A stretch of DNA of 64,000 nt from Candidatus Omnitrophota bacterium (GCA_017993955.1 JAGOLR010000002.1:26-64025), one strand, 5' to 3'. Numbered from the stretch's first letter, positions 1 through 64,000 are shown. The notes: a model not told the origin generated them from the sequence alone. Numbers and translations: made by a program.

Positions 1-3000
1 TGTATTAAAGATACGTCGATAGGCTGACCCTGTACAAAGTTAAGGTCGGGCCAGAAGAGGCCATCGGCTTCATCGACAGCAAAAGGCAATGCCGCGCGGG
101 CCTCTTTTTCGGTCAATTTTACATTACCGCCCCTCATGGATCTGGCTATCTCTTCTTCGTTAAACTTACCGGCCAGATTGTCCGAGTCGCCCTCGAAGAA
201 TACAAAATCTTTTCCTTGTTGTAATCCGTTCGCTTTAAATTCCGCGGGCGTTGTGATATAGCCGTTCAATTCCTTTACCGCGGTGACCATGAGAAGGTGT
301 CCCAAGGCCAGCATATCGTCGAGCTCTTCTCTTGTATACCCTTCGCCTGAAATGGTAAAGCTCGAGCCTGTGTTGGAGAACCTGACTAGGGTCATGGCCC
401 CGGTCTTTGCATTAGTTATATGAACACCACTTACAAGTTTTACCTTAGGATCTCCGAAATTTATGACGAATTTATGCTGTGTATCCGGGAACCATTTAGC
501 CGCGATCTCTTTCATCTTGTCGGCGATCGCATACTTATATTTGTCCTGCTCGGTAGGCAGCGACGGTTTTCTCTCATCTACCACCGTATCGCGCAGGTTA
601 TATTCAGACTGTATCCACGCAAGCTGCTCGGCCGGGTTCCTGCCGTTCCACTGGTGTTTCATGCAACCGAGCAGATACACCAAGAATAGCGCCGCGTTGT
701 CACCGCCCTGATAACCGGGATAGTTATGCTCGGCCGGAGCGCCCCAGTTTGCGTTGGTAAGCGGATTGGTAAATGCATGGCAAGTATTCTCCACTGCAAG
801 GTCTGCCGGAAGAGACGCCATACCCCTCATGAAGAAAGGATATCCGGCCTCGTGAGGCACTACCTTTACCGGCAGTCCTCTGTCGTTAAGAGCGCGCTCC
901 AGGTCCTTCGCGGCTACGCCGGTCCTCATGTCGGATATTACTGTAGGAACTCCCAGGCCCTTCTCTTTGTAGCTTACGGCCATATTCTCTATTGCGAGAA
1001 GAAGCAACTGCGAGCCGGTCATCGATATGACCTGCCCTTGCGGCGTTATCGCCACTATAGAACCCCTGTCACCGTCCGGATCGACGGCAAGCCAGGTACG
1101 ATTGGTATCCTGGGCCCTCTGCTTTATCCTGGCTATCGCCGCGGACTTATGCTCATTCGGGTCTATGATATGTTTTGTATCGTAATTCGCGTCGAGCTTT
1201 TCGTTATCTACGACGAGGTCTGTTACTCCGAGCCCTTTCAGTATGGTCACAAGGTTCTGGCCTATGGGGCTACCGCCCATGTCGACTCCGAGCTTAAGAC
1301 CCGACAATAACTCGTCCTCTTTTGTATTAACCGGCGCGGCCGTCGCTCTCAACATATCGGCGGCTACCTGTATATTATTCTTTGTGGTATCGCTTACCGT
1401 GATGACATTCATGCCTTTCGAGTCGGTCTTCTTTATAGGAGCGAAATCTTTGGAAGTTATGGAGTCATACAGGGTGCCGGATTCTACGCCCTCACAGTGG
1501 CGGACTTCGGGCCCGCAGTAAACTTCAGCGCCTATACCAAGCTTGGAACCGAGGAAATCCTCAGGCCTGTGGCTCATGGTAAAGTAGACCCAGTTGCCGC
1601 CCTCTCCGTTAAGCGCTTCGTAGAGTTGGCCGTAGTTACGTATATCGCCGCCGTTCATGACTCCCCAATAATAGATCCCGCCGCCGTTATCGAATATACC
1701 GGTCCTGAGTATGGCGTCTGCGAAAATCTGAGCGGCCTCGAAATGTTTCTGATACGCGTCAACCGCTATATGCAGGATGATGCCATCCTGTTTTCCGGTC
1801 TTCTCCTGAAGCTTCTTGGCGAATGCTAAAGCAAAAGCGACCGTAAATGCCGGGTTCTCCCTCCAGAACTTGGAGCGAATATCGTAGTACATGATACCGG
1901 CTTCTATTATCTCCTGGACAGATTTATCGGAGAGGCTATTTATAAAATCGCGCAGTTCATCTGTATAGTCACCGTTATTTTTAAAGAACCTTCCGTCCGG
2001 AGTGAAAATCCTGCCGTGTATGTCGGGAAGATTTACGCCCGCAACGATACCATCCTGTACCCTGGAAAGGGCGGTGGCCCTTGCGATATTAAGATCATCG
2101 CCGGTCTTGCCGGGGAATGAAAGCCTGGGAGCGCCGGTTCTTACGGCACCTACATCTATATCGGCAGACTTTGCGGCAAGCTCTTTCTCGATAGCTTCGC
2201 CGAGGGTTTTGTAACCCTTTCTCTCATGATAAACCTCGATTACCGTATCCGGATTTTCTGTCTGGCCAACTAACCCCAATGCTTTTAACCGATCAACTGC
2301 TACTGCCGCAGCAGGCTTAAAATAATCTTCCGAAAGATCGCTGAGCATAACTGCATCAGGGGCCAGTATAACGAAGATGGAAGCAAGAAGATTGACTGTA
2401 CTTGCGGCTTCTTTATCTTTTCTAAAATCTACCTCTCTGCCGCCAACGACACCGTAAAAATTGCCTCTATTCACAAGTAAGTTCGCCGCCGTAGGGAACT
2501 CTTGCAGGTTAACATTCTGGTAAATAGTGGAAGCCTGCTGTAAAGCTGATCTACCATATGCCAGATAGCCAAGGGCATCGGCCGGGATTATCTCTGCTGC
2601 AGGTGTAGCCAGAAGAAACCAGCCGACATCCTGTCTAAGCGCGTCTTCGTTAAAGCCCGGAGGCAATGCACCCAGCTTACCTTTGATAAAATCCTCTTTC
2701 AAGAAAACGGTCGTCATACCCCTGATAAGATCGACCCGCGAACTTATATATACGTAAGGATATTTCTTGTCTTTCAAGGCCGGATTATCTTTGAACGTTT
2801 CGGCAATGGGATTATCGTCGACTTGAGCCACTGTCATGGCCATAATAAGATCTGCAAGGGTCTTGATCCCGTACTTTTCCGGTAATCCCTTAAGCTGCCT
2901 TGTGGTCTCGTTATCGGCAAATGCGTCTTTTGTATCGGCCATTTCACTGACAGAGACCTTATCCAGGTTATTATCTAAAGCAAGAAGCGCAAGCCGCAGC

Positions 3001-5603
3001 TCTTTAGTTGGAGCGATAGCCTCTACCTCGATTTCGCTGGCTTCAGGATTTTCTATATGCGCTATCTCGTGCCTGAACGCCTGCGCTAACAGCGCGGTAC
3101 CGTTATATAAAGATAATATACTTGCCAGGTCGATCTCATCTATATATACCTGATTACGGGTAACGCCATAATGGAATATGACGTCTTTTAGGCCTGCGGG
3201 CAGCTTCTCCTTCAAACCGCGGACCACGACGAATTTATAAGGCGATTGGCCGAATATATTGTTCAACTCGGCCAGTTGGGAACTCACCCTCGCTTTGTCA
3301 CCAAGACGCGAGATGTCTTCATCCGTAGCCGCGTTTATCGTCCTCTCGCCAAAAAGTTTAGCCGTCCAGGCTGTATCGAGAATAGAGTAAGCCATCCCGT
3401 CATCTATGCTCTCCCCTATGGCGCCGTTTAAAGTACCTGCTATGCGGACCATAGACTGCGCGCCCACCCTGTAATACCTGAGCCCGTGGCCGTCCGCGGT
3501 AACTCCGGTAACGCCTTTACCGCGTATAGCGCCAACCTCATCACTACCGGATGCTGTCTGCGGAGCAATGCCGGCGTAGCGAGCTTCTACCCTTCTATAT
3601 ATCTTTTCGAAAGCGGTATTTAACTGCGCGGTACTCCATATATCTTCCAGTTTTTTCCTTATAGTAGTCTTTTCCGCATAAGAGAGAGTAGTAGCTCCGT
3701 TGGCCTCTTCCTGTAATTTAACCAGGGCATTTGTCATACCCAGAAGATAGGCCTCTTTGACGGTATTCTGGTCACGCACCAGTTGGTGGGTATCCGCCAT
3801 AGCAAAGACCTTCTGCATCCACCTCGAGACCATTATCATGGCATAAGAGACTTTTACCTGTTCTGTTCTGTCGATGATGGAGTCTATTAGGCTATCGAGC
3901 GAACCTCCGTCTATACCCTTAATGGCGCCGAAAGCGGCCCTTATCTCTTTTTCACTGAGTGGCACAAGCTCTGAGAGTATTATAGGAGCGAGCATCTCCG
4001 CCCGGGCAGCGCCGGTATCCGTAAGAAGGTCCTCGAATGAAGTGCGCTGGTTGGTGAGTATCTGTATATAAGGACTGGGTTCGTTCTTGGTTATGTTCGG
4101 GCAGATCACTATATAGGACATGCCCTCTTTTTCCAGCAATTTGGATATACCTTCGGAATGGAAGCCGCCGGTAACTAGTACGGCTATCCTCTCGCTATCC
4201 TTATTCATCGCGTTGATGGTATTGTCAACAAGGGCCTTGTCGCGCTTTATGGCTATAGCGTAGAAATCCTCGAGTTTTGGTATGCTTTTTGATACAGCCT
4301 CTGTAGGCGGCTCGAGTTCGTAATTGAAACCGAATTGTATCGATTTATTCTTGATGAAATCGGCAAAGACCTCCGGGGCGAATTCGCTCTTATGGGCCTT
4401 GTAATAGTCGTAATCGCCGTTCAATAATTTTATGTTGATGAGTCCTATTATCGTATCTACGTGGCGGGATAGCTTCTCAAGAGTGCGCTGGTCGTCGTTC
4501 TGGAAGAGCTTCTCCTTTATGGCGGTTTCGACAAGCTTTATCTCGTGGAAGAGTTTCTCGTTCTCTATCCTGGAGTAGACTGCGTTATATATCATGTAGT
4601 TAAAGAGGTTCGGGTAGTCTTTGGCAAGGTCCACTTCGTTCTGCTGGGTAAGGGCTTTTAAGTAAGTGTAAAATTCTACGGATGATATCTTGCCGACTTT
4701 GAAGGCAAGAGACTGGGTGACTAGCTTGGCTATCTGCTCTTTGGACATCTTTTTGGTAAGGACATCTATGACATTGGAGCGTTCTTTGTCAACGACATTG
4801 AAATTTATCTTCTTCTCGTAAATAAGAACGCTTACCAGCTTGAAGAAATTATCGTAAGCCCTGGCGTTTATCTTGTACTTCTCGCACATATCCTGGAGAT
4901 ACCGGATGTAGTCATTGAACTGGATCTTTTTGGACTCATAATCATCCATCTTGGAGTCCATGGTCTTCAAACCTTCGTTATATATATAACCTTTCAGCCG
5001 GTTCAATATGCTCTTAACCTGGTTATAATACTTCTCGGTCTCGTCTTTCAGTGGGTAGCTTGACGTGAAGGCATTAAGGTTCTGTATATAATATTCCCTG
5101 GTCTCCGCTCCGAAAAGCTTTATGGGGTAATCAGTAGTAATGGAGAGGAATTCCGGTCCGGTTATCTCGCCCTTCTTCATGAAATAGGTAGCGACTTCTT
5201 TGCGGATCTCTTCGTCCGGGAAGGCCTTGAACCAGGAGGTGTCTACTATGCCGTCGGCTCCTTCAACCGATACCAGCTTCAGCCCGTCGTTCTTCACAAA
5301 GCTCTCTACCATCTTGGCAATATTGGTCTGGGCTTCGTAGTTGCAGTGCGCATCCTGTATATGGATGACGAGCTTATCCTGGGAGCCTTTGTATTTGGAT
5401 TTCAATATCCCGGTGTCTTTAGGTATGACTATCTTTTCGGGGTCGGTGACTACTTCCGTCTTTGCCGCGGGTTCTGCAGCGGCAGTCTTGATGTCGGTCG
5501 GGGCTGCAAAAGCTATCGAGGATGCCATAAATGCTTGCGCTATAAAAACGGATACAGTCTTAATAAAGATAGTCCTGCCTGTGGTCATTCTTGCGAATAA
5601 CAT
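1..5603 (-). CDS. giant secreted multidomain protein, 3'-truncated by window edge (at least 1867 codons in window): signal peptide, conserved N-terminal module, HExxH module, alpha-D-phosphohexomutase (PGM/PMM-like) domain
   Basis: ATG at 5603-5601 with GGGAGG Shine-Dalgarno 6 nt upstream (5609-5614). The ORF track reports no complete minus-strand ORF in 1-5951, so this frame stays open to position 3. N-terminus MLFARMTTGRTIFIKTVSVFIAQAFMASSIAFA/AP is signal-peptide-like with an AxA site. Motifs read directly in frame: FTMSHRP (1560-1580), LAVDPDGDR (1065-1091), LLAQAFRHEIAHIE (3051-3092). Confidence 0.85.
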   Translation of the reverse strand, partial: MLFARMTTGRTIFIKTVSVFIAQAFMASSIAFAAPTDIKTAAAEPAAKTEVVTDPEKIVIPKDTGILKSKYKGSQDKLVIHIQDAHCNYEAQTNIAKMVESFVKNDGLKLVSVEGADGIVDTSWFKAFPDEEIRKEVATYFMKKGEITGPEFLSITTDYPIKLFGAETREYYIQNLNAFTSSYPLKDETEKYYNQVKSILNRLKGYIYNEGLKTMDSKMDDYESKKIQFNDYIRYLQDMCEKYKINARAYDNFFKLVSVLIYEKKINFNVVDKERSNVIDVLTKKMSKEQIAKLVTQSLAFKVGKISSVEFYTYLKALTQQNEVDLAKDYPNLFNYMIYNAVYSRIENEKLFHEIKLVETAIKEKLFQNDDQRTLEKLSRHVDTIIGLINIKLLNGDYDYYKAHKSEFAPEVFADFIKNKSIQFGFNYELEPPTEAVSKSIPKLEDFYAIAIKRDKALVDNTINAMNKDSERIAVLVTGGFHSEGISKLLEKEGMSYIVICPNITKNEPSPYIQILTNQRTSFEDLLTDTGAARAEMLAPIILSELVPLSEKEIRAAFGAIKGIDGGSLDSLIDSIIDRTEQVKVSYAMIMVSRWMQKVFAMADTHQLVRDQNTVKEAYLLGMTNALVKLQEEANGATTLSYAEKTTIRKKLEDIWSTAQLNTAFEKIYRRVEARYAGIAPQTASGSDEVGAIRGKGVTGVTADGHGLRYYRVGAQSMVRIAGTLNGAIGESIDDGMAYSILDTAWTAKLFGERTINAATDEDISRLGDKARVSSQLAELNNIFGQSPYKFVVVRGLKEKLPAGLKDVIFHYGVTRNQVYIDEIDLASILSLYNGTALLAQAFRHEIAHIENPEASEIEVEAIAPTKELRLALLALDNNLDKVSVSEMADTKDAFADNETTRQLKGLPEKYGIKTLADLIMAMTVAQVDDNPIAETFKDNPALKDKKYPYVYISSRVDLIRGMTTVFLKEDFIKGKLGALPPGFNEDALRQDVGWFLLATPAAEIIPADALGYLAYGRSALQQASTIYQNVNLQEFPTAANLLVNRGNFYGVVGGREVDFRKDKEAASTVNLLASIFVILAPDAVMLSDLSEDYFKPAAAVAVDRLKALGLVGQTENPDTVIEVYHERKGYKTLGEAIEKELAAKSADIDVGAVRTGAPRLSFPGKTGDDLNIARATALSRVQDGIVAGVNLPDIHGRIFTPDGRFFKNNGDYTDELRDFINSLSDKSVQEIIEAGIMYYDIRSKFWRENPAFTVAFALAFAKKLQEKTGKQDGIILHIAVDAYQKHFEAAQIFADAILRTGIFDNGGGIYYWGVMNGGDIRNYGQLYEALNGEGGNWVYFTMSHRPEDFLGSKLGIGAEVYCGPEVRHCEGVESGTLYDSITSKDFAPIKKTDSKGMNVITVSDTTKNNIQVAADMLRATAAPVNTKEDELLSGLKLGVDMGGSPIGQNLVTILKGLGVTDLVVDNEKLDANYDTKHIIDPNEHKSAAIARIKQRAQDTNRTWLAVDPDGDRGSIVAITPQGQVISMTGSQLLLLAIENMAVSYKEKGLGVPTVISDMRTGVAAKDLERALNDRGLPVKVVPHEAGYPFFMRGMASLPADLAVENTCHAFTNPLTNANWGAPAEHNYPGYQGGDNAALFLVYLLGCMKHQWNGRNPAEQLAWIQSEYNLRDTVVDERKPSLPTEQDKYKYAIADKMKEIAAKWFPDTQHKFVINFGDPKVKLVSGVHITNAKTGAMTLVRFSNTGSSFTISGEGYTREELDDMLALGHLLMVTAVKELNGYITTPAEFKANGLQQGKDFVFFEGDSDNLAGKFNEEEIARSMRGGNVKLTEKEARAALPFAVDEADGLFWPDLNFVQGQPIDVSLI
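350..1940 (-). other. alpha-D-phosphohexomutase (phosphoglucomutase/phosphomannomutase-like) domain within gene 1
   Basis: Catalytic-serine loop TxSHxP (FTMSHRP), Mg-binding loop DxDGDR (AVDPDGDR), a downstream ENTCHAFT loop (compare GEESGH) and RFSNTGSS (compare RPSGTEP phosphate-binding loop), all in the canonical order. Domain boundaries are approximate. Confidence 0.55.
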
Positions 5604-5684
5604 ATTTTTCCTCCCGGGATTTTTTGGAAATCTTTCCATATGCATTCTTTATTGGATAACTTTTTTATCGTTTTATATATATTA

Positions 5685-5712
5685 AGTTTATCATTTTTAA
5701 TAGTAATGTCAA
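5685..5712 (-). promoter_or_regulatory. putative sigma70-like promoter for gene 1 (-35 TTGACA at 5707-5712, 16-nt spacer, -10 TAAACT at 5685-5690, minus-strand reading)
   Basis: Hexamers read on the minus strand. They are embedded in a block conserved with the region upstream of gene 2 (GTCAATC..TGACTTTTTTA). Lies about 80 nt upstream of the ATG. Confidence 0.3.
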
Positions 5713-5778
5713 TCCATATAAACTGACTTTTTTAACACTCAACAAATATGGTGTTATTGCTAGGAGCTAGCACTTTTT

Positions 5779-5893
5779 CGTCAGGCGACGAAGCAATCTC
5801 TCTTTCGTCATTGCGAGGAATTATCGCTAAACTCATACGACGAAGCAATCTCTTTTTTAGATTGCTTCGGGCACTTCGTGCCCTCGCAATGAC
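5779..5893. repeat. nested-palindromic intergenic repeat element, copy 1 (a half-unit plus a full unit)
   Basis: cgtcaggcgacgaagcaatctctc + cgtcattgcgagga ... cgacgaagcaatct-cttttttt-agattgcttcg-ggcacttcgtgcc-ctcgcaatgac. Outer arms GTCATTGCGAGG/CCTCGCAATGAC; inner arms GACGAAGCAATCT/AGATTGCTTCG; central palindrome GGCAC-TTC-GTGCC. Confidence 0.85.
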
Positions 5894-5951
5894 AAACGAA
5901 AAATCCGGCTTTACAATAACAGGTTAAAATAGCACCCGGTACAAGAAGATG

Positions 5952-43428: not shown

Positions 43429-43444
43429 TTTAATTCTTTCTTTT

Positions 43445-43489: not shown

Positions 43490-43568
43490 AGGCTGAATTT
43501 TGTCATTTGTCATTGTTAACCCCGCTTTGCGCATTACGTTTTACGCTTCCGCTAGTCTTTATAAATCT

Positions 43569-43613
43569 ATAAACAAAACCGCCAGACCGATTTTCGAGCC
43601 ATTCAGTCTGGCG
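43569..43613 (-). terminator. rho-independent terminator downstream of gene 4 (minus strand)
   Basis: Minus-strand CCGCCAGAC-(17-nt loop)-GTCTGGCGG followed by TTTTGTTTAT. An adjacent second hairpin GAGTAG-n12-CTACTC followed by TGACGTTTT on the plus strand suggests a bidirectional terminator. Confidence 0.5.
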
Positions 43614-43760
43614 GAGTAGATACAATTTTTGCTACTCTGACGTTTTAGCTTACACCTATGCATATTAGTTTCATTTTTTATCAAATTCTACTATATAATT
43701 TATCACAGCTACTGCTTTAAATCAATGCAAGTCCTTCTGTCTTTTTTCTCCCTAACCTGT

Positions 43761-43849
43761 TGTCATTACGAGGAGCTATCGCCAAACTCAGGCGACGAAG
43801 CAATCTCTTTTTTTAGATTGCTTCGGGCACTTCGTGCCCTCGCAATGAC
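43761..43849. repeat. nested-palindromic repeat element, copy 5 (full unit)
   Basis: tgtcattacgaggag-ctatcgccaaactcagg-cgacgaagcaatct-cttttttt-agattgcttcg-ggcacttcgtgcc-ctcgcaatgac. Confidence 0.85.
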
Positions 43850-44150
43850 GCAGATGCGATTCTTTCGAACCTCTCACTTTACGCTTTTCGCTTTATCCCA
43901 CCGCGACATCCAGAAGAATGGGGCGGGATTCCACCTCGCCCTTAAAAGATTGTGATAGCGGAAAAAGCCCGTCCTCGCTCCTAAGGGAGCCGCTTGGCAG
44001 AGCCCCCAAAGAAGCGAAGACGGATACCCTCGCTTACGCTTTACAATGGCGGAAGCGGGGTGGGGTAATATCGTCGTTCATAGATCGTAGTTCGTTAAAG
44101 AACGGATAATTTCATTAATTGTCTATCGTTAAAGAACAGCTAATACCGTC

Positions 44151-44270
44151 CGTCATTGCGAGGAACCATCTTTTTATTTCATGTGACGAAGCAATCTCTT
44201 TTTTTAGATTGCTTCGGGCACTTCGTGCCCTCGCAATGACGAAAGAATAATTTCGTGCCCTCGCAATGAC
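44151..44270. repeat. nested-palindromic repeat element, copy 6 (full unit with a duplicated right arm), ending 13 nt from the stop of gene 4
   Basis: cgtcattgcgaggaa...gtgacgaagcaatct-cttttttt-agattgcttcg-ggcacttcgtgcc-ctcgcaatgac-gaaagaataattt-cgtgccctcgcaatgac. Confidence 0.85.
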
Positions 44271-44282
44271 AAATAACGATGA

Positions 44283-59200: not shown

Positions 59201-62200
59201 TGCCGTACTCGCCTACTACGCCCGTCTCTTCCATAAATAGCTGTGTCATCATGCACCACGAGCGCTCTATGCTGGCTTTGATATCCGCGAACGGGCTAAG
59301 AGCCGCATCGGCTCCGTAAAGCGGATAGCTTAACCCCATTATGTTCGGACGCGACAGCTCATCCACGTTATTGGGTAGCCACAGCGTCTCTTCCGGCCTC
59401 GGGTTCATATTAGCATCCAGGCGCATCGATACCCCGTGCCTGTATCTTCCGAAATTAGATATTATGGCCGCCTTGACACCTACCGCCACCTCCGGTATCT
59501 GCACAACTCCGTTAAGCCACTTGGTGGCAGGACCTGGAGGACCTCTCACACCTGTATTGGCAAGGCGGGATATGTAGAAATTATTCTCCGGACGGTCGAA
59601 TATGAATTTATCCGAAAGCATAGGATCCTTGCCAGGCGGAGCGCCTTGTACAACAGTATATACATGAAACTTCTCCTTCACGAGATTGTCGTAATAGAGA
59701 TCAAATTTAATGAATTCCATCTCATCCTTGTCCAGATAGGTTGAGCCCAAAACCAGTCCTTGCTCGGCATCAGTCAATATAACAATTGGCAGCCACCCGG
59801 TTCTTGTAATAACGCCTTTAAGACTTTCGATACGGTCTGCCGGCATGCCACTCTTGGCAAGAATATCTAAAACTTTACCCGCAAGCGACTTTCTTTCAGA
59901 GCCGCCTGCCTCCGGGCCGTATTTATTCTTGAGCGTAATATATCGACCGTTATAGAAGCTATTTTCAGCCAAGTCTCGGAATGACCTGTACATCGTCTTA
60001 TAACCTTCCAGGGTCCTCCGCACTCCGGGCAGGCGCATATTAGCCCAGTCGACTATTCTTTCCTTTATGACCTCAAAATCATCTTTAGTATAGCCAATGG
60101 CCGACATCTCCGATTCCAATTTAGCGGCATCGGTATCCCGGCTGAAATTTATGACCCTCAAAAGCTTCTTGACGTCTTCTTTTGCATCCATGTTATCGAC
60201 GAAGTTGCGCCATTCATCCGGGTAACTTTCCGCCACCAGGTGGTAGAGTTCGGTGGGATACGCGCTCTGATCGAAATCCCATATCTTAGTGCCGGATTTG
60301 TCTTGTTTACTAGCCACATAAGATGTGAGGTCTTCCCAAGTCTTCGCGAACTCTTCTTCGTAAGCAGAATTATAACCTACCGTGAAAGGCCTCTCTGTCC
60401 ATTGCCTGAAGATGGGCGGGGTATCCTTCCTGTAGAATGTATTGAGTATCCTCTTTAACCTCTCGAGCCCTCTTGCAGTGCTTATCTCTACATGTTCGAA
60501 TTGAAGCAATTTGTCGCGCTCGGCGGTACCGATATGCCCTTCATTCCATAAGCAGTATATCTGGTATTTATAAGAAGAAAGCGCCCTAGAAGCGACCTCT
60601 TCGTCATTTTGGAACCTATCGACCCTGTAATTATCGAAATTCGCATTATGGTAGAAATCTTTTATTCTCGCATCTTTCCAGAAGAGATAACCGGTCAATA
60701 ACGCGGAAGTCAGCATAGCCAAAGGCAGTACATAAAGCCCGGCCGAACCTAAGGCGGCTCCTATAGCCGAATAAGCGCCTGTACCTACACCGTATATATT
60801 CGCTGCGATGCTTAAGCCTCCGAAGGCCGCAAGCCCTGCACCGGATATAACACTTACCATGCCGGCTATGCTTCCTGATATTCCTCTTGGCTCACTACCC
60901 TTGCCCGTAAGTTTAAATTTAACCGCATCTAGGGCCGCGTTGACATCGAGCCTTCCGTATCTTACATCGAACATGTGCCTTTCTTTGATGGCCTTAAGTA
61001 TCACCGGCACCTGTCCCGAATACATGGAGCCCCTAAGCATGAATATGAAGAATAGCCCTAATAATAAATGGACAGGCAGTCCTATGAATAGAGCGAACTT
61101 CAATCCCGTAAGTCCGAACATTCCAGAAAGCATCGGAAGCGCAAATATCCATGAGAATATGGGCAGGGACAGGTTCAATAACCCCGGTATAGAGAATGTG
61201 AGATGTTCGAGATGGCGCGGTTTACCGCTTATCTCTCGTACCTTCAATATCGATTTCTGCCATATCAAAAGCGATCCGGCGGCGGTAAGAGACGATAACC
61301 ATACCGGCAGGCCTATGCTATTTGCGCCAAAGGCTATGCCTATGCCGGCAGCTATTGCTACAAACTCCCTGAATCCTGGTATTATCCTGCCCCATCTTTC
61401 AAAATGAGAGATGCTCCGGATGGCCTTATTCTGCTCTTCCTCGGAAAGCTTATTCCATTCGTCTTCTGCCATAAATGCATGTTCTGGTCTGCCCTGAGAC
61501 CTCATCTTCTTGAATATACCTATCTGGCTGTCCATAAGCCCGGTTGGAGCCACCGCAAGGCTGTCTATGAATCTGTCCCATCCGCCTTCGCTCAGCCTGT
61601 CAAACCCTACCTGCGCAAGTTTAAGAGTCAAGAGAAGCAGGGTAGCAACGACAGGCGTTACAGTAGTGATGGATGAGAAATAACCGTATAAGAAATGGCT
61701 TCCGGCAATTGCCAATATCGACATAGCGGAAATAAAATAGCCGTCTAGAAATGTTATAGCTTTAAGGGTCCTTATGGGCGATATGTAAACTGTAGGCCTT
61801 GTAAATATGGGCATCTGGGCTTCTTTCATGCTCTCGAAAGCCGGCGGAAGCATAAGCCTGTCTACTATCTCCTGCATGATGTAGCCGTGCATCGGTTCGT
61901 TTTTAGTTCGTGACCATTCAAATACCTTCCTCATGGTCTTATAGGGCACGACTTTGTTATCATCAAGAGCATTAACTTCTGTGGCTATATTCTGAGGCAG
62001 AGACGCTACGTTGTTTAATATTTTCTTGAATATGCTGCCGGTCAATTGATAACCCTGGAACGGATCCTCGTAATCTTTGGTCGCCATCATCCTGGAGAGA
62101 TAAACTTCCTCAAAATACGAGCGCCATATCCAGTTCTCGATTCCCTTTCTCAATTTGTGGTTTACCTTGAAGTACTGGTCGCCTAATAGATACAGTACGC

Positions 62201-64000
62201 AGGCGGCCCTGTCAGAAGCTTCTGGTATCAGCATATCCGGCTTACCGGCCTTGTCCAGTGACTCTGTCAATTTCAGAAGATGCCTGGTCCACACTATCTG
62301 GTCCTGGAGATTGCCCGACATAAATTGATACAGTTCCGTAAGGAACGCCTGTTCAAGCGGCACCTCATACCAGCCCATATACGCCTTAACGTCACCGGCC
62401 TCTTCTTTTATCCTGTCGATCTCATCTTGTATATCTTTTCTCATTTCCGGATCGGCGGTACGGGCAAGTTTCTGCCTTAAAGCATCTAACCTGTTGCCGA
62501 GCCTGGCTTGTTCGGGAGTGGCCATAGAACGCGCCCGTTCTGTCTTGAACCATGGGTTACGGTCAAAATCTTTCTTATCGGTAAGCCACGGACAACTGGC
62601 CAATTGATCTGAATCATGGTATCCCCATATCCTCTTAACCGCGAGGTTCCTGTCAGCGAGGCTGCTTATAAGCTGATCTACCATCTTGTCATACAGATAT
62701 TCCAGGAAGTTCGGGTTCTTTTCACCGCGCAACGAGGTAAGACATGGGTCGTTCACCAGTACCTTTTGCCCGTTGATGGTCCAGAAATTGCCGCTCTTAT
62801 CTAGATTAGCGGCATTCAATCCCCGTTTTTCAGCGTACTTTATCAATTGAGGTTTATAGACATTCTTAACCATAGCCCTGTAAAGACGGTCTGCCGCTGA
62901 ATTGGCTTTCAAAGCCTGCGGCAATTTAGCCAGATCCGATTGGACTTCTTTTATGGAAGCTGCAAGGACTGAAAGACCTTTGCCTGGCCCATACAGATTA
63001 TCGCCCATATCTATAAGATCGTTCATGGCCGCGGCAAGATTTCCGACATCCTCAGGGAATAATTCGGATATCTTTTGTTTGGCGGATAGTCCATCCTTAG
63101 CCTTTAATATGTCATCCAGAATGCCTGCTCCGCGGTCGGGACCGCCACCCTTACCCTTACCGCCTTTAGCCACCGGCAATGAAGCCTTCTTCTTAGTCTC
63201 CATGTGAGACCTGGCCATCCTGAAGACCTTGAAAATTATGACTAAGCCGATAATGACTGGAATAGCTGACATCACAGTCACGCCTGTCTTCCTGACTCGA
63301 TCACCGAATCCCTCTCTCATCTCCCGAAGTATGGCATATTGCTCATCCGAAATTATCGGTACATTATGTTTCGGGCTCAATATCTGAGCTAATAGACTGT
63401 TAACTATGAACCTGTCATAGAAACCAGGGCTCAAATTTGCCATTGTGCGACCTGTGGTCTGGTCATAAAGCCAGCCGTACTTGTCGTATGTCCATCCGAT
63501 AGCTTGAGGATCTCTCATCTCGGCCCGGAATTTATTATGGTGTATAACCATAAGCTTGCCGTTGTAAAAATGTCTGTTGGGTATGCTGGGAGCAAAAATC
63601 TCTTCCGGATTTTTTTCCATCCATTCTGATATAAAGCCGGCCCGGTCAGCGTCGAATTCAAAGTTCCATACCTCGCCCTGGCGTCTTGCATCATACGCCC
63701 GTACGAATATCTTATACGGTATTCCGTCTCCCAGACTAATACCGAACTCATTTTTCATTTTTACTGAATAGCTAGGTGCCTCGAATATATCGTAGTACTG
63801 GATTATCTCTTTAGGGGCAAATTCCGTAGGCTCGTAGAACTCTGAATGCAATCTGCCGTCAGCTCGCAGAGTAACGCCTTTCAATGCTTTCTCGCGGTCA
63901 TCTATGATCTCGAACTTTACAAATATGCCACCGGAAGCGTCTTTATATAAACTGAGATGATTTGCTCTGGCCACTTTGCTGATCGAAACATAAGTATCGC
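44283..64000 (-). CDS. giant (at least 6563 aa in window) polytopic membrane multidomain protein: several multi-TM blocks, 2H phosphoesterase, 2x HExxH module (shared with genes 1 and 2), 2x TM/HENxHWFLH module, 2x ACT-like, UDP-sugar pyrophosphorylase-like region; 5' end probably outside the window
   Basis: Open frame from the window end to TAA 44285-44283. The first in-window start candidate is GTG 63974-63972 (ORF track), but the frame is open through 64000, there is no SD before the GTG, and there is no N-terminal signal peptide, unlike the other three genes. The HENTH motif was back-translated at 51045-51059. Confidence 0.85.
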   Translation of the reverse strand, partial: DTYVSISKVARANHLSLYKDASGGIFVKFEIIDDREKALKGVTLRADGRLHSEFYEPTEFAPKEIIQYYDIFEAPSYSVKMKNEFGISLGDGIPYKIFVRAYDARRQGEVWNFEFDADRAGFISEWMEKNPEEIFAPSIPNRHFYNGKLMVIHHNKFRAEMRDPQAIGWTYDKYGWLYDQTTGRTMANLSPGFYDRFIVNSLLAQILSPKHNVPIISDEQYAILREMREGFGDRVRKTGVTVMSAIPVIIGLVIIFKVFRMARSHMETKKKASLPVAKGGKGKGGGPDRGAGILDDILKAKDGLSAKQKISELFPEDVGNLAAAMNDLIDMGDNLYGPGKGLSVLAASIKEVQSDLAKLPQALKANSAADRLYRAMVKNVYKPQLIKYAEKRGLNAANLDKSGNFWTINGQKVLVNDPCLTSLRGEKNPNFLEYLYDKMVDQLISSLADRNLAVKRIWGYHDSDQLASCPWLTDKKDFDRNPWFKTERARSMATPEQARLGNRLDALRQKLARTADPEMRKDIQDEIDRIKEEAGDVKAYMGWYEVPLEQAFLTELYQFMSGNLQDQIVWTRHLLKLTESLDKAGKPDMLIPEASDRAACVLYLLGDQYFKVNHKLRKGIENWIWRSYFEEVYLSRMMATKDYEDPFQGYQLTGSIFKKILNNVASLPQNIATEVNALDDNKVVPYKTMRKVFEWSRTKNEPMHGYIMQEIVDRLMLPPAFESMKEAQMPIFTRPTVYISPIRTLKAITFLDGYFISAMSILAIAGSHFLYGYFSSITTVTPVVATLLLLTLKLAQVGFDRLSEGGWDRFIDSLAVAPTGLMDSQIGIFKKMRSQGRPEHAFMAEDEWNKLSEEEQNKAIRSISHFERWGRIIPGFREFVAIAAGIGIAFGANSIGLPVWLSSLTAAGSLLIWQKSILKVREISGKPRHLEHLTFSIPGLLNLSLPIFSWIFALPMLSGMFGLTGLKFALFIGLPVHLLLGLFFIFMLRGSMYSGQVPVILKAIKERHMFDVRYGRLDVNAALDAVKFKLTGKGSEPRGISGSIAGMVSVISGAGLAAFGGLSIAANIYGVGTGAYSAIGAALGSAGLYVLPLAMLTSALLTGYLFWKDARIKDFYHNANFDNYRVDRFQNDEEVASRALSSYKYQIYCLWNEGHIGTAERDKLLQFEHVEISTARGLERLKRILNTFYRKDTPPIFRQWTERPFTVGYNSAYEEEFAKTWEDLTSYVASKQDKSGTKIWDFDQSAYPTELYHLVAESYPDEWRNFVDNMDAKEDVKKLLRVINFSRDTDAAKLESEMSAIGYTKDDFEVIKERIVDWANMRLPGVRRTLEGYKTMYRSFRDLAENSFYNGRYITLKNKYGPEAGGSERKSLAGKVLDILAKSGMPADRIESLKGVITRTGWLPIVILTDAEQGLVLGSTYLDKDEMEFIKFDLYYDNLVKEKFHVYTVVQGAPPGKDPMLSDKFIFDRPENNFYISRLANTGVRGPPGPATKWLNGVVQIPEVAVGVKAAIISNFGRYRHGVSMRLDANMNPRPEETLWLPNNVDELSRPNIMGLSYPLYGADAALSPFADIKASIERSWCMMTQLFMEETGVVGEYGKYMHKEVMEQMYGIAPIIRNAEDLTLTFFGFANGLRIAYNHGMLIGWGKTTTWLADLAPDKKYAADHYEMVQDALGILFAYSSKAPLHWKWTHMFNIAAFWSLKVLVVLTGISFLLFSAILNIDPALAFPFGIVFVGLGLTLALSITLTSIILMNSLYGSPFGFIRFMYAAFFRPGISFGATSEHPHYFDAIIQDTLGGKDVFPATKRMTPSVILTLRFIHEVNKRGAMIGAIMIPLLIVAAPFFPGTAFGTAMLYSMLVTSYLVSGYMFNNKRIFDNLKTRWLGSLAGFATTIGAGGAVYFGLPALRALVHSIFPAADGIMVGLTAVPATYLIALGIIAAMQLLVTLEGLIFPKDRPEPLHKKAISNIAVFVNLLLASMAVSSSTLAPFIMAAPAIVWILVDSNKREMAKAIIKGGLSSIVWSWQSIMKDKIWKPYRFISFAFIPFAGVILYGIWAASLNWTASGFALLLVPFILKGFVTEKYYGWKSREMRKKIDDYLKSAKAAEYRIFTEEQIAEDIGYIKAGQTMSVRERRALRNALTLYTHYPHMKFLRGGYYFDFNMLAENPDGSGFIKRFSFDMDDKTAKKVSSLVISGASDADIVNALGSSAPKDAALKNFLKALKDSKDITQKLTDAEEGAFAGKNVDEISSLIRRTYKTDTDRDNALKEFEKFLRSLVETEAMNVRNSLSLPRDLGFNESVLEHIIRTHPEEWREFIEKLAVQRNPLMTSREMELTDLEKKKFLDINAFLSDPGAVINGTLNDLSRKDLDLPDVTGRQGKLRDEIAAWVNQFIWKQVPAVNKEAIMPLKETYDAKGNFITYDAQVMGLPKSPGEVVPGEEISVRDRLEVSRERVIEEAYSIYSAFPVAPGLMQSAQESMKAELPQSILDKISWNNPETAHVTIVGFKTSARAFSENDIERRKAVADEVLSTRLHSMILKGQGVDIMPNGALYVPMTLGAADITTIEEVYRLCQARMPGETMPYQDYIPHTTIGYLIDELTDNEAEILSNTLGKLRAKDWGECKSDEAVLYYYEGLTDSITVLSKYALPEPGTLPAETAGGAIMISGEQIPDHERFNVEDIKNIILTPGAATTLFSDRVSDMEGDIKLYMDKRELPIMNMLRAKRGELGDDGFDVVILKGGNLHPDVILHPGRGRRQAYINDYYINSLNAIYTSLEDYEDRQTLVEIVLEAFRHEIEHIRTERAQAPPQDESAIDSQAPSYRARALFTLIRRAYLSAGATPASLAAVASRFFRDLDKFSNAIAYYKEFVTAHPKAGKATAQQEVVEYLNKNPEILDAALRLLNQSNMHLIGATAKTIDILRHMQEGKIQEFSMVIPSGSVMLLNVQDRLSDGREINGRMRFDRSELPHKMRIDDQAQEGVVPLEPIDDHIDALRPEIAGRDYIVIPHSNIYFNGHFVMFKDGVIYHADGEFNSRGLSMHPDSSGRLKTREYTSLVAWKTPYGRITIERLLFIKGVKGAKDKVILADSGEDITDKVSVTVYGQQLVKDGRVKTEDETLAMRDEFDDNLHLQFQYQYNILGIGANGELILLTVAGDREKGQGRMPWEMARLIREKGAINAILLSNGGDANIRFNDELVTASAAGRTGTGRSMARTWSTSALVFALPKAGELAPAPEAPVQGGGITLRGEPISPDQNLYYTKYLAFRIKDKANPPTMLFNRRQAIKPLEGDIDIEVDSRNLPLLDAIRQRRSELPFKINPADEQEFDVVIFREASGSTIHPDILLHAGRGRKQAYISDIYIQALNTVYASLKDENLKKAMIDILLEAFRHEAMHIELESAGMPSQPESFINSRAPSARARVLLLQIYMNEINKVSLLAANLDSNQALISTVRTILRLLSSRPEDPSSIVLEYKKQILDKTPDPKTGKMRPILCRTPEDYILLKRAFLELAQEGRLPLRYRTFIGLFRRIQPASKEIYEDSIGSDLRKFSNSSVGMLPVELDIDEGKSDLTGVVLGLRKARQNKQWSHIFVTDAGMKTRNYLLTLLKIFQGRLRVLNKSFMEMQFEAQLAILAQLPGRGKNWKTMGGSDNDIAPSYMTVGGKHISAIPADAKALFFGAPALVLGKDDMSRADNLREIVEDARNLRAQGADESKIRALFESANFGPILERIDDANLTQLGILAADPQTGRLIDFLEKGKIEEIIDTALKTDGTLLINTFQLAFTAREEGKDGENGALDDLEDLFNVPSAVDSPDGKRKLTLLEAYGFGLFDTLGQAMMRRPVDDTGKVDRTKIPATWKKIASDEDLQRVYDLASSYVAKYPIYVVNLGEGYIWNDAGYPWTYLETAQKRAFDPENRKNAGLTPVDENVMESYIDPRTTLEVMYKDGRVVALPGMTNPRDLADRDKVLRFMNNRLKQLKNNGADLFIYRTNIIGKGVVRIGKHTILSNTVIELDKGEVLAFGEDYYVESSEFKYAGSFEGGEGLLVGYFPNRVLNFDEAYTHVSLIDQAGQQVDDIYRLRGNVKDEKALPDGTKVNDLEHRKIADTGKNFDAWQQETNLKAERARDAKLHKIAGLYPIIKEIVGNFKPGTEFDISQIMGHTLLRDDNNTPVISASNKDARFAVYNIVTMLIDRGEISASVKLQDPGLFVVESPAPITSRGQFWTGIAVLALSAYVGIYISLRASSSIPLFLCVYYGVTVSTAFLLITYPKIKRFEQTLADAGEKDKLPISYNPLNGRVDINPMLIDEYNKMARFTRIMIWVHENTHWFLHAVLGINYSDHSYLHEIAANTVMALSPIIAAIAMIIAPVFIVPYTLWKTYRIAAADRIIKSEIRYIVSGENDISKDEARNLLNAVVHAMPQTHKNIVRRHEIAGQKGLSVTERARFREQLNDILDLYKKTKSSEGVSSKVLNPTVTVKDAAGGPVMVPVGHTDIMLVSKITPERPSIIGDVGRILEDKMLGVQSSISTRFGDINITILEVTRNGEVLEEDEVRDLAMEFSIRFESDLGKISRLEDLTPDMAKPVNRYVVEPVIDILGDIDEPSARDVLDQLLSTQSIRAPPFALLSNNYGLRAKLKEAAGTFNERTNTIFLHEDLLSENNRLFVPTLIKLAIEASIPSGVGQDEIDMRVRAAQEKYLEYSYRPEVMGKRINSFVGSRRGDMFSDRSSRQNVDAIIDELNSRETLTMEKEIDVAPLAIVEDFQDNGKAIDALLSGELCLQMPFAGQASRMYDSLKKALKERRDALEAAGVPINEKDFEISPDESRIANIDIWDIALRTGLISEIPPYAQRINVGERAMLALEQGIFNLARTHNLSDDDVNKIFANLKLVVNLSDDIASQIHEMFMSPSKLSGRPFFGLNPENVVFVDGGYGVAYEFNDKGELVPTENPDKQKVTWNHGFAFAELFWIKGPNAYTLKVTEGPAGQPVAEKVGLELPAMKYIYSRGGRTGCIHRINDLILLHPAGALDVQMFGSYLNLRQREGINALFEMMANPTKTKGGLALSRDKKHLTLWEGLAAKHPVLKAVIERLSKKEEQATGGRRGVPYNRLYGYYDIKDTLDALISEEMTLPLSQDRDIPGMVAPEIPTGDLTWLKGMKAYAALRRNDILIREGILPNSTIDLHGNPVPIYDGTGAIIHDFKTYANFDDAHKVAMAQDRDDYLGLIRYARRAAITSKGQLKTAGLTSAAGLMGMGGAYLSGSPLLLVLAGYALLASPVFLFVTYRAIRNLEDVLASKQSRLEAVTPGERAPPVRYNPATNNVEIDPLVSREYESLSGFTKSLISAHENAHWFLHTKLGIEPGRSDLIGQIHEIFANATMVFTLALTSLAALYSYASEIILPSSMRSDRYAFVSIVPASVMLGSLVPTGMWIIPAFLILSPIVIFAVCVINGIPTDVAITSVWGGIKHIVTYMKIGKAIDTLSDGDEDISLFLNTVVNSMPIGHRNIVNDQPERFTKQLTEVVDSYKEVKKTGIPSIKISNPPEVERTDVMLVSEERTGLIASLGEVIRRNGASIVYTPNHTIFNGVSVIIYEINKDGKPLSQEDIDALQRDIIGMTLPPPALQSPVMKKSITGIIWEAVDSELAELRGTHPGLIIDNDVEKTRNAYFRLAAKLKPSYRLMLDVVDDCPYEIRLKMLQILNRISQALNMEGDRAVAEPVRINDELKAIRITFAMDIANLTNFWVGLSTADLKMGPDGKYREFTKEEILRKLQEKARAYMNGMVKYSAEYNDFSRYFYGDGTEQYPGLLNIVRDPERYGDAWAIKVESYPGRRREARCSYNGAQTLAEGNSYFVPYFDKESTDRYLFIARGAGSVFQSFYLTRQLNNRDVNGYMFFISRDTVSESFKGKINMQINRLAGLLEDPDNPDYENIPKNYENLERLMMEYLAGEYAKGGTTANVLDAIYEQAKNAGVLDGLRSGDELCLVDELADGSFLFTAKFIIEKKTAEEGRPIKVRFFVGQARSPDVLAVNDFPSLSVGDLMRDFGLTRERALSIIDSVSETADNVPHSLRAAQVALPILRPEVPIEVESYEVLIGAYMRALLNYNAVVNFQNRVMNQDVLVGIPTGVMTDEEIEDLKAIITSGHPGLDIGFCDIQENSVDALSKVMHARKAKKGVIVDTPYDTAIPNLNTYLASLGRYGQITSIKLPRKPEAGVTEVARLKGGKFVIGVSRGGDRIVVEEAMKDNPIFGQYLRSGMATITVFTEGVEGFNKTIAEDGCNGVFIDKSLFEDESTDMKDLIDNISIDAGEILVSNTTLEELQNILAELKYTLEDIDRYNLDQAYRDQMGPEYGSIIAAKVSPIIMRAKIQMEERKSVIRSTYNGMAMPKVVAQGSVIATTEKVAEQDPFFADNMKKAKDLGVKNVFIYGDKIASLERAKAFVRASGYGDVSDIVFIDKRGRTYQDIVALAADETKAAIANIGIRAAANEIGMPSGDSKFLEVQAYKKDGQPVRMRDRDGTEVLLTMNTYQVLLAIVSKPGASSAEEFGIPGLKIEGNRFIYLPPAEPRDITGDYEAYKTMIELISSAA
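47505..48287 (-). other. TM plus HENAHWFLH module, copy 2 (paralogue of 50715-51377)
   Basis: RYNPATNNVEIDPLVSREYESLSGFTKSLISAHENAHWFLHTKLGI followed by four TM helices. Confidence 0.45.
48435..49757 (-). other. UDP-sugar pyrophosphorylase (UDPGP/UAP1-like) region, tentative
   Basis: LQMPFAGQASRMYDSL compared with the LAGGQGTRLG nucleotide-binding loop; overall size fits the UDPGP family. Weak call. Confidence 0.3.
50715..51377 (-). other. TM hairpin plus HENTHWFLH module, copy 1
   Basis: YNPLNGRVDINPMLIDEYNKMARFTRIMIWVHENTHWFLHAVLGI flanked by TM helices. HENTH was verified at 51045-51059. Confidence 0.45.
53829..54041 (-). other. conserved HExxH module, copy 2 in gene 4
   Basis: DVVIFREASGSTIHPDILLHAGRGRKQAYISDIYIQALNTVYASLKDENLKKAMIDILLEAFRHEAMHIELE. 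The gene 1 homologue reads DVIFHYGVTRNQVYIDEIDLASILSLYNGTALLAQAFRHEIAHIE. Confidence 0.5.
55605..55811 (-). other. conserved HExxH module, copy 1 in gene 4 (family also present in gene 1 at about 3051-3250 and, in divergent form, in gene 2 at about 11370-11477)
   Basis: DVVILKGGNLHPDVILHPGRGRRQAYINDYYINSLNAIYTSLEDYEDRQTLVEIVLEAFRHEIEHIRTE. Confidence 0.5.
56175..56522 (-). other. 2H phosphoesterase (LigT-like) domain in gene 4
   Basis: HxT/Sx pair: ETAHVTIVGF and IPHTTIGYL. Confidence 0.45.
57750..59777 (-). other. large polytopic membrane-embedded module of gene 4 (at least 12 predicted TM helices; function unassigned)
   Basis: Hydrophobic stretches such as VLVVLTGISFLLFSAILNI, FGIVFVGLGLTLALSITLTSIILM, AMIGAIMIPLLIVAAPFF, IMVGLTAVPATYLIALGIIAAMQLLV and FISFAFIPFAGVILYGIWAASL. 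No diagnostic glycosyltransferase motif was found. Confidence 0.4.

Follow-up and report, generated by a model that had tools for sequence, protein, structure and literature searches.

What are the giant genes of Omnitrophota for, and on which side of the membrane would the enzymes that they encode work? The question is raised by a 64,000-nucleotide (nt) chromosomal segment of an uncultivated Candidatus Omnitrophota bacterium (the window), which holds four giant genes in tandem, here called A to D. The four proteins are very probably smaller, tandem members of a known Omnitrophota multi-enzyme giant-protein kind. B and C carry predicted sugar and sugar-phosphate enzymes, their motifs largely kept, between transmembrane (TM) hairpins and HEAT/TPR scaffolds. 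Membership of this kind, taken jointly with a mechanism that places most enzyme modules at the inner membrane's cytoplasmic face, is the reading towards which we lean on balance; the cytoplasmic placement as a mechanism is proposed tentatively.

Open reading frames (ORFs) were defined from an ORF listing and a six-frame scan of the whole window. Genes A–D together occupy 62,109 of the 64,000 bases (97.0%) and all lie co-directionally on the minus strand, while the longest plus-strand frame has 265 codons. The gaps measure 303 (A/B), 250 (B/C) and 1,334 nt (C/D). Nested palindromic repeats occur in all three, with 14 copies of GTCATTGCGAGG against 0.26 expected; a second unit, GACGAAGCAATCT, likewise present in all three, has 9 copies against 0.08 expected. 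This layout had been described in an initial annotation of the window as four co-directional giant minus-strand ORFs covering about 97% of it, with repeat-filled gaps and one gene of 97 amino acids (aa); the measurements bear it out, and the small gene encodes a GIY-YIG protein.

The ORFs are real genes under purifying selection. An independent ENA contig, L013 (sample ERZ2648158), agrees with window positions 27528..22619 at 99.98% identity over 4,910 nt, and with 22589..20291 at 99.4% identity over a further 2,300 nt, with a few indels and a coverage of 2.4x. The contig covers the end of C, the C/B gap and the start of B, and thereby confirms the C-terminal 1,472 aa of C. Sister-species contigs were taken from GCA_029565635.1, two JGI metagenomes and one ENA assembly. 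Nucleotide identity to the sister species is 91% at the C-terminus of C and 78% in the N-terminal head domain of B, and the ratio of nonsynonymous to synonymous substitution (dN/dS), measured in these two regions only, is 0.083 and 0.099, respectively. Fragments of a B orthologue from a sister metagenome-assembled genome (MAG), 72–85% identical, cover the head, the Enzyme-I-like module and the C-terminus. The independent assembly, the dN/dS of 0.08–0.10 and the orthologue fragments together make a chimera or spurious fusion very unlikely. Between the two matching stretches, L013:4911-4996 differs from window 22590-22618 by 57 additional in-frame nt in the B linker that joins signal peptide and head. 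The extra stretch contains SNLKEIASSPDEKAPSPRNDD in the protein alignment, and the length of the B linker therefore varies among strains.

All four proteins were tiled through Pfam at E ≤ 0.01, and the main modules were aligned to Protein Data Bank (PDB) sequences; a lenient rescan at E ≤ 1 took in D and A as well as those stretches of B and C still without annotation. Coordinates and scores are collected in Table 1. B runs from a signal peptide and the head through a GT5+GT1 module, a weak HD motif, a GHMP kinase, a phosphorylase, a module like Enzyme I (EI) of the phosphotransferase system (PTS) and a TM segment to a 567-aa C-terminal region. The GT5 module is full length and keeps NDWH, GRxxxxKG, EPC and TGGL. 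The GHMP kinase is closest to the L-fucokinase domain of Bacteroides FKP and keeps all three motifs (PRGSGLGVSS, GGGWQD and GAGGGGF), and the phosphorylase keeps the motif EASGTSGMKA of the pyridoxal phosphate (PLP) lysine. The EI-like module, 25–31% identical to canonical PTS Enzyme I, keeps RTLD, IETPAA, SIGTNDL and CICGE, and with them the residues that bind phosphoenolpyruvate (PEP) and the active-site cysteine; a candidate catalytic phospho-histidine lies in GNSRSHW. Behind the HD motif, 900 residues are unannotated; two similar motifs within them, ITPEEAKLMLSVLIVCDVF at aa ~1357 and MSTGEMKLLLDILILCDVF at aa ~1939 (about 18790 and 17040), suggest a duplicated domain.

The modules of C are strung between HEAT and TPR scaffolds and internal membrane hairpins or clusters at aa 299-366, 900-973, 1754-1876, 2340-2474, 2553-2657, 2950-3027, 4034-4105, 4269-4334, 4605-4631 and 5896-5964. 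The ribulose-phosphate 3-epimerase (RPE)-like barrel keeps HLD, DLHIM and IDGG and carries an insert of ~35 aa. The match to the fructose-bisphosphatase (FBPase) family FBPase_2 spans ~85 residues (profile positions 188-277 of 639) and has no counterpart in the PDB search. About ten internal segments have the anatomy of signal peptides, with a basic n-region, an h-region of 12–15 residues and in most an AxA-type end: AFA-E, AFA-G, AAA-Q, AWA-D, AFA-Q, ASA-Q, VFA-E, AFA-Q, ASA-V and AFT-E, where the hyphen marks the predicted cut. Most are followed 20–35 residues later by a TM helix, with acidic or neutral residues in between and basic residues behind this second helix. AxA hairpins were considered as a family-wide feature and rejected, since homologous giants of other species have plain hairpins. 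Hydrophobic segments number ~20 or more each in C and D against only 2–4 in A and B.

A spacer-like stretch of C directly precedes the first internal signal-peptide-like helix. It includes an in-frame full copy of the intergenic palindrome, GTCATTGCGAGG-hairpin-GACGAAGCAATCT, at 42125-42169 (aa 261-275), which translates to SPSLRGVPPEAERRSNL. A 23-nt direct repeat, GATCCCTCGCTTCRCTCGGGACG, translated DPSL(H/R)SGRFAEE and found nowhere else in the window, lies at 42278-42300, in this spacer, and at 40292-40314, directly before the second hairpin (aa 900-973). Spacer and repeat suggest, from this one locus, the trace of a read-through fusion of adjacent genes, and such a fusion would explain the full signal-peptide anatomy of the internal segments of C.

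A is arranged as signal peptide, head, single TM segment and a phosphoglucomutase (PGM)-like module. PGM domain II is its only Pfam family at E ≤ 0.01 and stays below its own cut-off; both TMSHRP, the catalytic serine loop, and DPDGDR, the metal loop, are present. D has polytopic membrane regions at aa 747-1106, 1693-2081, 4214-4370 and 5242-5447, and is otherwise almost wholly unannotatable: the lenient Pfam rescan came back essentially empty, no NCBIfam model matched, and the PDB sequences held no homologue. Matches of 2H phosphoesterase type are marginal (E 0.029 in D and 0.27 in C), and about half of the total protein length has no detectable domain.

No tile of A–D matched a condensation, adenylation, ketosynthase, thiolation, acyltransferase, Ig or cadherin family, either at E ≤ 0.01 or in the lenient rescan. 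Repeat arrays recognized by Pfam are HEAT and TPR only, and self-BLAST gave no long internal repeats. The Pfam scans thus rule out nonribosomal peptide synthetase or polyketide synthase genes and adhesins, in agreement with the initial annotation. They also yielded no SecA_DEAD, C39/S8 peptidase, NUDIX or methyltransferase domain, and no GlgC-type NTP_transferase or GlgB-type alpha-amylase/branching family in the window. The initial annotation had further described enzymes linked by TM hairpins and HEAT/TPR scaffolds, an architecture found in B and C. Its statement that each protein strings enzymes together holds for these two, is thin for A (a sub-threshold PGM with motifs) and fails for D (the borderline NAGPA-like region and the 2H match at E 0.029). 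From its list of enzymes, GlgA, GlgP, GHMP kinase, PEP-utilising enzyme, RPE, CofD and the glycoside hydrolase (GH) barrel were recovered by Pfam and PDB, FBPase III and 2H phosphoesterase are marginal, and the UDP-sugar pyrophosphorylase region was not recovered in any Pfam scan, the lenient one included.

Table 1 Features of the window, grouped by gene (positions counted from the first letter of the 64,000-nt window).
Feature	Position	Strand	Details or evidence
Gene A	3..5648	-	open frame, at least 1,882 codons, C-terminus beyond left edge
A signal-peptide-like segment, aa 27-50, ...SSIAFA-AP cut pattern	5499..5570	-	hydropathy scan and sequence
A head domain, TIKI/TraB/EreA-like	3849..5366	-	homology to B head; PF04187 (ChaN/Tiki superfamily) E 0.05, weak
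A TM segment, aa 1082-1106	2331..2405	-	hydropathy
A phosphoglucomutase/phosphomannomutase-like module	249..1661	-	PGM_PMM_II 28.6 bits against cut-off 29.3
A/B gap	5649..5951	.	palindromic repeats, promoter-like site 5712-5685
Gene B	5952..22859	-	ORF, 5,635 aa
B signal peptide, aa 1-32, ...DILWA-QD cut pattern	22764..22859	-	pattern conserved across homologues
B head domain, TIKI/TraB/EreA/ChaN-type core with large helical insert	20925..22592	-	conserved D99, H101, E129, H496
B GT5 glycogen/starch-synthase module (Glyco_transf_5 + Glycos_transf_1)	19395..20852	-	Pfam 5.3e-52 and 6.5e-17; PDB 6gne 2.2e-51
B HD-domain motif, weak	19203..19310	-	Pfam 8.4e-05, 23.3 bits
B GHMP sugar-kinase module, L-fucokinase type	14790..15797	-	Pfam GHMP N + C; PDB 9iip/5yys 4.5e-45
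B alpha-glucan phosphorylase (DUF3417 + Phosphorylase)	11814..13793	-	Pfam 5.7e-24; PDB 9l6i 1.3e-70
B PTS Enzyme-I-like PEP-utilising module	8022..9998	-	PEP-utilizers_C 4.5e-40; PDB 2hwg 5.6e-22
B TM segment, aa 5037-5068	7656..7751	-	hydropathy maximum 2.52
B conserved C-terminal tail (...FKYLPENLPKNYEEEIRMHREFVKLILRAA)	5955..6089	-	tail HMM i-E 2.4e-08 at extreme C-terminus
B/C gap	22860..23109	.	CGTCATTGCGAGGAGCC x3, promoter-like site 22923-22896
Gene C	23110..42948	-	ORF, 6,612 aa
C signal peptide, aa 1-29, ...DISWA-HP cut pattern	42862..42948	-	sequence
C low-complexity spacer-like stretch, aa 165-298	42055..42456	-	short nucleotide repeats
C internal membrane hairpins/clusters	25057..42054	-	hydropathy, sequence, charge bias
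C HEAT-repeat scaffold	38749..39687	-	HEAT_2 3.6e-58
C TPR scaffold	34189..34911	-	TPR_1 2.8e-35
C low-molecular-weight phosphatase (LMW-PTP) module	33145..33576	-	LMWPc 2.8e-05, 24.8 bits
C glycoside-hydrolase TIM barrel, GH2_C / GH-A type	31711..32412	-	Pfam 3.7e-08
C ILEI domain	31009..31323	-	PF15711, Pfam 5.1e-21
C ribulose-phosphate 3-epimerase-like barrel	29239..29841	-	Pfam 1.3e-28; PDB 4nu7 1.3e-23
C CofD/YvcK-like module	27796..28851	-	Pfam 3.5e-14; PDB 2ppv 7e-08
C metallophosphoesterase motif	27169..27501	-	FBPase_2 9.8e-09, Metallophos 5.6e-05
C/D gap	42949..44282	.	GIY-YIG gene between nested palindromic repeats
GIY-YIG gene, 97 aa	43135..43428	-	Pfam E 1.4e-16
Gene D	44283..63998	-	at least 6,571 codons, open to right edge, N-terminus probably outside window
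D NAGPA-like (phosphodiester glycosidase) region, borderline	54444..54761	-	25.1-25.3 bits against cut-off 25
D conserved C-terminal tail (...NRFIYLPPAEPRDITGDYEAYKTMIELISSAA)	44286..44411	-	tail HMM i-E 8.9e-06

The head is a domain of ~550 aa that follows the signal peptide in A and B and shows the motif pattern IQDAH...EG...GGxH; C has none. A and B are 29% identical over their N-terminal 540 aa. The AlphaFold2 (AF2) model of the head (pLDDT 84) has a parallel β-sheet core between helices. Residues D99, H101, E129 and H496 are at least 90% conserved in 37 head sequences and follow the 2His/2Glu order of the TIKI type, as mapped by motif order rather than by superposition and with Asp as the first acidic residue. 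The 28 residues that separate H101 and E129 equal the distance between His85 and Glu113 of Bcr135 (PMC6254334). The head differs from the TIKI/TraB/erythromycin-esterase/ChaN/RRSP/HopBA1 superfamily in its ~300-residue all-helical insert, in the Asp that replaces the first Glu and in being fused to the N-terminus of chains that run to thousands of residues. For the head, neither Pfam nor NCBIfam offered a model that reached threshold, and the literature search found no paper connecting Omnitrophota with TIKI or TraB. A head profile run against 1.84 billion representatives matched at least 9,740 clusters (50% identity), 6,671 of them at E ≤ 1e-30. The head is N-terminal in all of the best 150 matches, whose proteins are 506–7,834 aa long; 134 of these 150 were absent from our earlier homologue list, including 30 of at least 5,000 aa and none of 8,000 aa or more.

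The opposite end of the chain is also conserved. A hidden Markov model (HMM) built from 24 tails, none from the window, finds the tails of B and D; 15 of its 18 matches stop no more than 3 residues from a C-terminus, and there were 0 matches to reversed sequences. The motif has the form YxP(4-6)D/N..E....Y......L..A-COOH and ends most of the 60 longest head-bearing representatives. A similar amphipathic ending occurs in giant ORFs that terminate inside the window or in related loci, with C resembling the motif weakly, and a short family member (P0021, 1,021 aa) also has a tail-like ending. A broadly conserved C-terminal domain in B was considered and rejected: blastp among C-termini was negative, and the last 567 aa are matched by the sister orthologue only. 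The family-wide motif is confined to the last ~40 residues. Head and tail look like constant ends around variable cargo. The TIKI/TraB/EreA-like head with its signal peptide at the start of A and B, and the C-terminal tail, are new here, as are the ~10 signal-peptide-like helices inside C and its in-frame copy of the intergenic repeat.

The homologues of the B head (n = 52) are, where named, hypothetical proteins of Candidatus Omnitrophota MAGs, except for two labelled Vogelbacteria and Planctomycetota. Twelve related GTDB loci come from MAGs labelled Omnitrophota or 'uncultured Planctomycetia', and in the 12 genomes the head region opens large ORFs whose downstream bodies are unrelated. A Pfam census of 13 complete members found, on the one hand, glutamate dehydrogenase, UDPGP, ARMT1, PEP-utilisers, phosphorylase, radical SAM with B12-binding, GHMP kinase and HD domains and, on the other, PKD, RHS, β-helix, NosD, cell-wall hydrolase and peptidase M50; CMP kinase, PG_binding_1 and OEP were seen in addition at related loci. 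In four related loci (L001:1-19804, L003:3-20686, L010:1-21589 and L002:3-10845) a second giant ORF has its end upstream of the head-bearing one, at a distance of some hundreds to some thousands of bases, and tandem arrays are thus common in the head-bearing family. The upstream giants have tail-like ends by eye, which the tail HMM confirms for L001. In three other Omnitrophota species one shared gene layout precedes the head-bearing giant gene: at L005:2-9367 an OEP (TolC-like) gene, an HlyD-type adaptor and two AcrB-type RND pumps (Pfam), at L006:1095-9273 the same layout with only the adaptor scanned, and at L008:3-9313 the same as judged from gene sizes. An OEP domain is also part of the L006 giant.

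Giant ORFs are a recognised trait of Omnitrophota (Seymour et al. 2023, PMC10066038), and concatenated metabolic enzymes as a megaprotein kind are already in the literature, from which the array differs in its below-threshold size and tandem layout. The 'Archaeovorins' of West-Roberts et al. 2023 (bioRxiv 10.1101/2023.11.21.568195) combine HEAT, GT5 (glycogen-synthase-like), GT1, TPR and glycoside hydrolase domains with many TM helices, and also contain triosephosphate isomerase, phosphoglucose isomerase, FBPase, PGM/PMM, aldolase and pyruvate phosphate dikinase domains. Their type sequence is a 39,678-aa protein of Velamenicoccus archaeovorus, and the genes studied exceed 90 kb, i.e. >30,000 aa; most carry a divergent SecA_DEAD domain, with genes of type II secretion systems or type IV pili upstream and PilZ downstream (10.1101/2023.11.21.568195). 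The window proteins share with them the phylum, the set of GT5, GT1, HEAT, TPR, GH and central-carbon domains on one chain (B and C only), numerous TM helices (C and D), large unannotated stretches and enzymes of cytoplasmic type that are predicted outside. Unlike Archaeovorins, they are 5.6–6.6 thousand residues long, form a tandem array and lack detectable SecA_DEAD, C39/S8, NUDIX and methyltransferase domains. The TIKI-like head and the tail are unmentioned in the Archaeovorin paper.

Nielsen & Lui 2026 (bioRxiv 10.64898/2026.06.07.730766) describe a 'multi-enzyme metabolic cluster' class with many Pfam families, none dominating, and a sugar-metabolism Pfam 'Module 2' that includes PF08323 (in 153 proteins), PF00534 and PGM. 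Signal peptides or TM helices occur in 94% of the long proteins there, and the same inside/outside conflict is discussed. The window proteins resemble the class in many Pfam families per chain, the co-occurrence of PF08323, PF00534 and PGM, a signal peptide with TM helices or TM helices only, and about one TM helix per few hundred residues; they differ in lying below its catalogue threshold of 10,000 aa. GlgP, the fucokinase-type GHMP kinase, the EI-like module, RPE and CofD are unnamed in the portion of the preprint available. The initial annotation had called such megaproteins undescribed to its knowledge, a claim that does not stand beside the Omnitrophota multi-enzyme giants of 10.1101/2023.11.21.568195 and 10.64898/2026.06.07.730766. 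The modules resemble free-standing GlgA, GlgP, Pgm and PTS Enzyme I in full-length domain coverage and largely kept catalytic motifs. Unlike these enzymes, they are fused in a membrane-anchored chain, and GlgC, GlgB, HPr and EII are not seen in the window.

In the mechanism that we tentatively propose, the signal peptide would take the nascent chain to the Sec translocon and the head would be exposed in the periplasm. TM segments and hairpins would staple the giant chain to the inner membrane, and most enzyme modules would lie on the cytoplasmic face, co-localised and in fixed stoichiometry. The set would comprise glucan synthesis and phosphorolysis, hexose-phosphate interconversion, a sugar-1-kinase and PEP-dependent phosphotransfer, with a minority facing outward, namely the head, the GH barrel/ILEI region and the NAGPA-like region. 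The charge distribution of the hairpins points to this placement: across 26 isolated hairpins, taken from window proteins and related giants, the lysine plus arginine (K+R) fraction is 0.178 in the 15-residue flanks versus 0.067 in the loops, at a background of 0.133. The first helices of the C hairpins, with basic N-flanks and AxA C-ends, were counted on the same side, as were the need of the modules for ATP, ADP-glucose or PEP and the radical SAM/B12, CMP kinase and glutamate dehydrogenase domains that relatives carry beside the head. A fits an arrangement with the head outside, one TM segment and PGM inside, and its single TM segment between head and PGM is the commonest arrangement of the family (51/101); B does not fit it.

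Several observations weigh against cytoplasmic enzymes or against a shared metabolic role. B has no segment with hydropathy ≥ 1.5 from the signal peptide to residue ~2059, so that simple rules put the GT5 module on the side of the head, in the periplasm; the sidedness of the B modules is the weakest step of the proposal. Helix parity, when the N-terminal signal peptide of C is included, leaves the hairpin-flanked modules of C outside and contradicts the charge rule. The first single TM segment after the head has no charge bias in 43 family members (K+R 105 vs 103). In both preprints (10.1101/2023.11.21.568195; 10.64898/2026.06.07.730766), predictors put most such domains outside. Beyond topology, the KxGGL motif of the GT5 module reads QAGGL, D (one third of the array) has no assignable function, and the heterogeneous cargo of relatives means that the family as such is not marked by a dedicated role in glycogen metabolism. 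An N-terminal helix buried in the head would have solved the topology paradox, and was ruled out by the AF2 model of B, in which this helix is isolated and followed by a disordered 30-residue linker and then the head. The carbohydrate-storage metabolon of the initial annotation comes out weakened. A metabolon needs cytoplasmic enzymes, yet A–C begin with signal peptides and B has no TM segment before its GlgA-like module; the cargo of relatives is mixed, GlgC and GlgB are absent from the window, and D is unassignable.

The best surviving alternative, which we consider rather unlikely, is that of exported surface enzyme arrays aimed at host or prey (the West-Roberts/Kizina reading). The signal peptide would then move the whole body over the inner membrane, leaving only short loops and the C-terminal region in the cytoplasm, and the enzymes would act in the periplasm, on the surface or inside attached prey, for example by converting prey glucans to sugar phosphates. 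Such export agrees with the canonical, Sec-type signal peptides of A, B and C, a pattern conserved family-wide with 246 K+R on the N-side of the peptide vs 88 on its C-side in 68 members, with the ~2,000 TM-free residues that follow in B, and with the linker that separates the N-terminal helix from the head in the AF2 model. The ILEI, GH TIM barrel and NAGPA modules here, and the PKD, RHS, β-helix, cell-wall hydrolase, PG_binding and OEP domains of relatives, are of apparently extracytoplasmic kinds. The outside predictions of the two preprints fit as well, and the V. archaeovorus giant protein is more abundant in attached cells. However, modules that depend on ATP, ADP-glucose or PEP and keep their motifs have no periplasmic substrates, the hairpin charges are distributed the opposite way, and the radical SAM/B12 and NAD(P)-dependent glutamate dehydrogenase cargo of relatives is hard to square with export.

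A polyprotein reading, in which the chains are cut into separate membrane-anchored enzymes in a fixed ratio, would agree with either topology but is improbable; signal peptidase I would cut at C's internal AxA sites, or the TIKI-like head would serve as the protease, or both. The ~10 segments of C with full signal-peptide anatomy, most with a TM helix 20–35 residues on, would offer such sites, but no AxA feature was seen in the hairpins that homologous giants of other species carry, and gene fusion could have left the segments behind as non-working remnants. The head keeps the TIKI-type His/Glu constellation, and RRSP, a TIKI-family member and MARTX module, is an endopeptidase; C itself, however, has no head. 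Cleavage by other peptidase domains was previously proposed for this giant-protein class. As a functional analogy only, MARTX toxins and viral polyproteins likewise carry unrelated catalytic modules on one very long chain, possibly released by processing; unlike MARTX, the window proteins have neither RTX repeats nor a CPD autoprocessing domain nor a type I secretion context, and processing here is hypothetical. A wider scheme, to which we give little chance, concerns the head-and-tail family of at least 9,740 clusters: a Sec signal peptide with a TIKI-type hydrolase head at one end and the tail at the other would bracket exchangeable cargo, the genes would grow by read-through fusion over spacers that bear repeats, and the chains would be cut at AxA sites by signal peptidase or the head. 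If true, it would amount to a bacterial polyprotein strategy analogous to flavivirus polyproteins, yielding membrane-tethered enzymes in fixed ratios.

A pseudoenzyme reading, in which the modules would not be catalysts but would persist in a scaffold or coat to bind ligands or to give structure, is very unlikely. The Lys to Gln change in the GT5 KxGGL motif, the partial or divergent state of some modules (the ~35-aa insert of RPE, the 'FBPase' that is a motif only, the weak CofD score) and the half of the total length that has no detectable domain could be read in this way; set against them are the intact PLP lysine, GHMP motifs I–III, the EI cysteine and PEP-binding residues, the PGM serine and metal loop and the His/Asp of RPE. 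Assembly chimeras or spurious joins of ordinary genes, the check on which had been attached to the initial annotation, are ruled out for practical purposes by the 99.98% agreement over the C/B junction in an independent assembly and the strong purifying selection, with thousands of homologous head-bearing proteins of 2–7.8 thousand residues in other assemblies and a head at the N-terminal and a tail at the C-terminal ORF end, as complete genes would show, although the host is uncultivated, aa 165-298 of C resemble translated intergenic sequence with a repeat element, and the low-coverage contig L013 has indels in B.

Promoter and terminator scans of the gaps gave scores no better than shuffled expectation, and an Rfam search of the window returned zero families. 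A stretch of ~240 nt in the C/D gap (43860-44100, minus strand) has no ORF or repeats and contains G+C-rich self-complementary segments; it could be a small RNA or leader. The GIY-YIG gene and its nested palindromes lie between D and C here and between C and B in the sister species (L014-L017; 75% nucleotide identity). As the cassette sits in a different gap there, the elements move, and the GIY-YIG and repeat cassette appears to be mobile and to occupy the gaps of giant genes. Neither an exact search with the GIY-YIG protein nor scans of GTDB and of metagenomes turned up a longer contig of the same species that would reach the N-terminus of D.

For the function of Omnitrophota giant proteins, and for whether their enzymes work inside or outside, this locus is a comparatively small and fully resolved case. 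What makes it tractable is that genes B and C are complete, that their motifs are largely kept, that B has few TM segments and that an orthologue exists in a sister species. With the head and tail signatures, related proteins can easily be gathered by the thousand, and one may ask whether sorting, processing or assembly is governed by a TIKI-type hydrolase and a C-terminal motif. In the mechanism that we propose, the giant proteins of a host-dependent cell would couple the processing of envelope or host-derived glycans to its internal metabolism of sugar phosphates and glycogen. If the enzymes are active on the cytoplasmic face, the array would be a rare bacterial case of a pathway segment built as one membrane-stapled chain; if they act outside, that would point to metabolic effectors used on a host.

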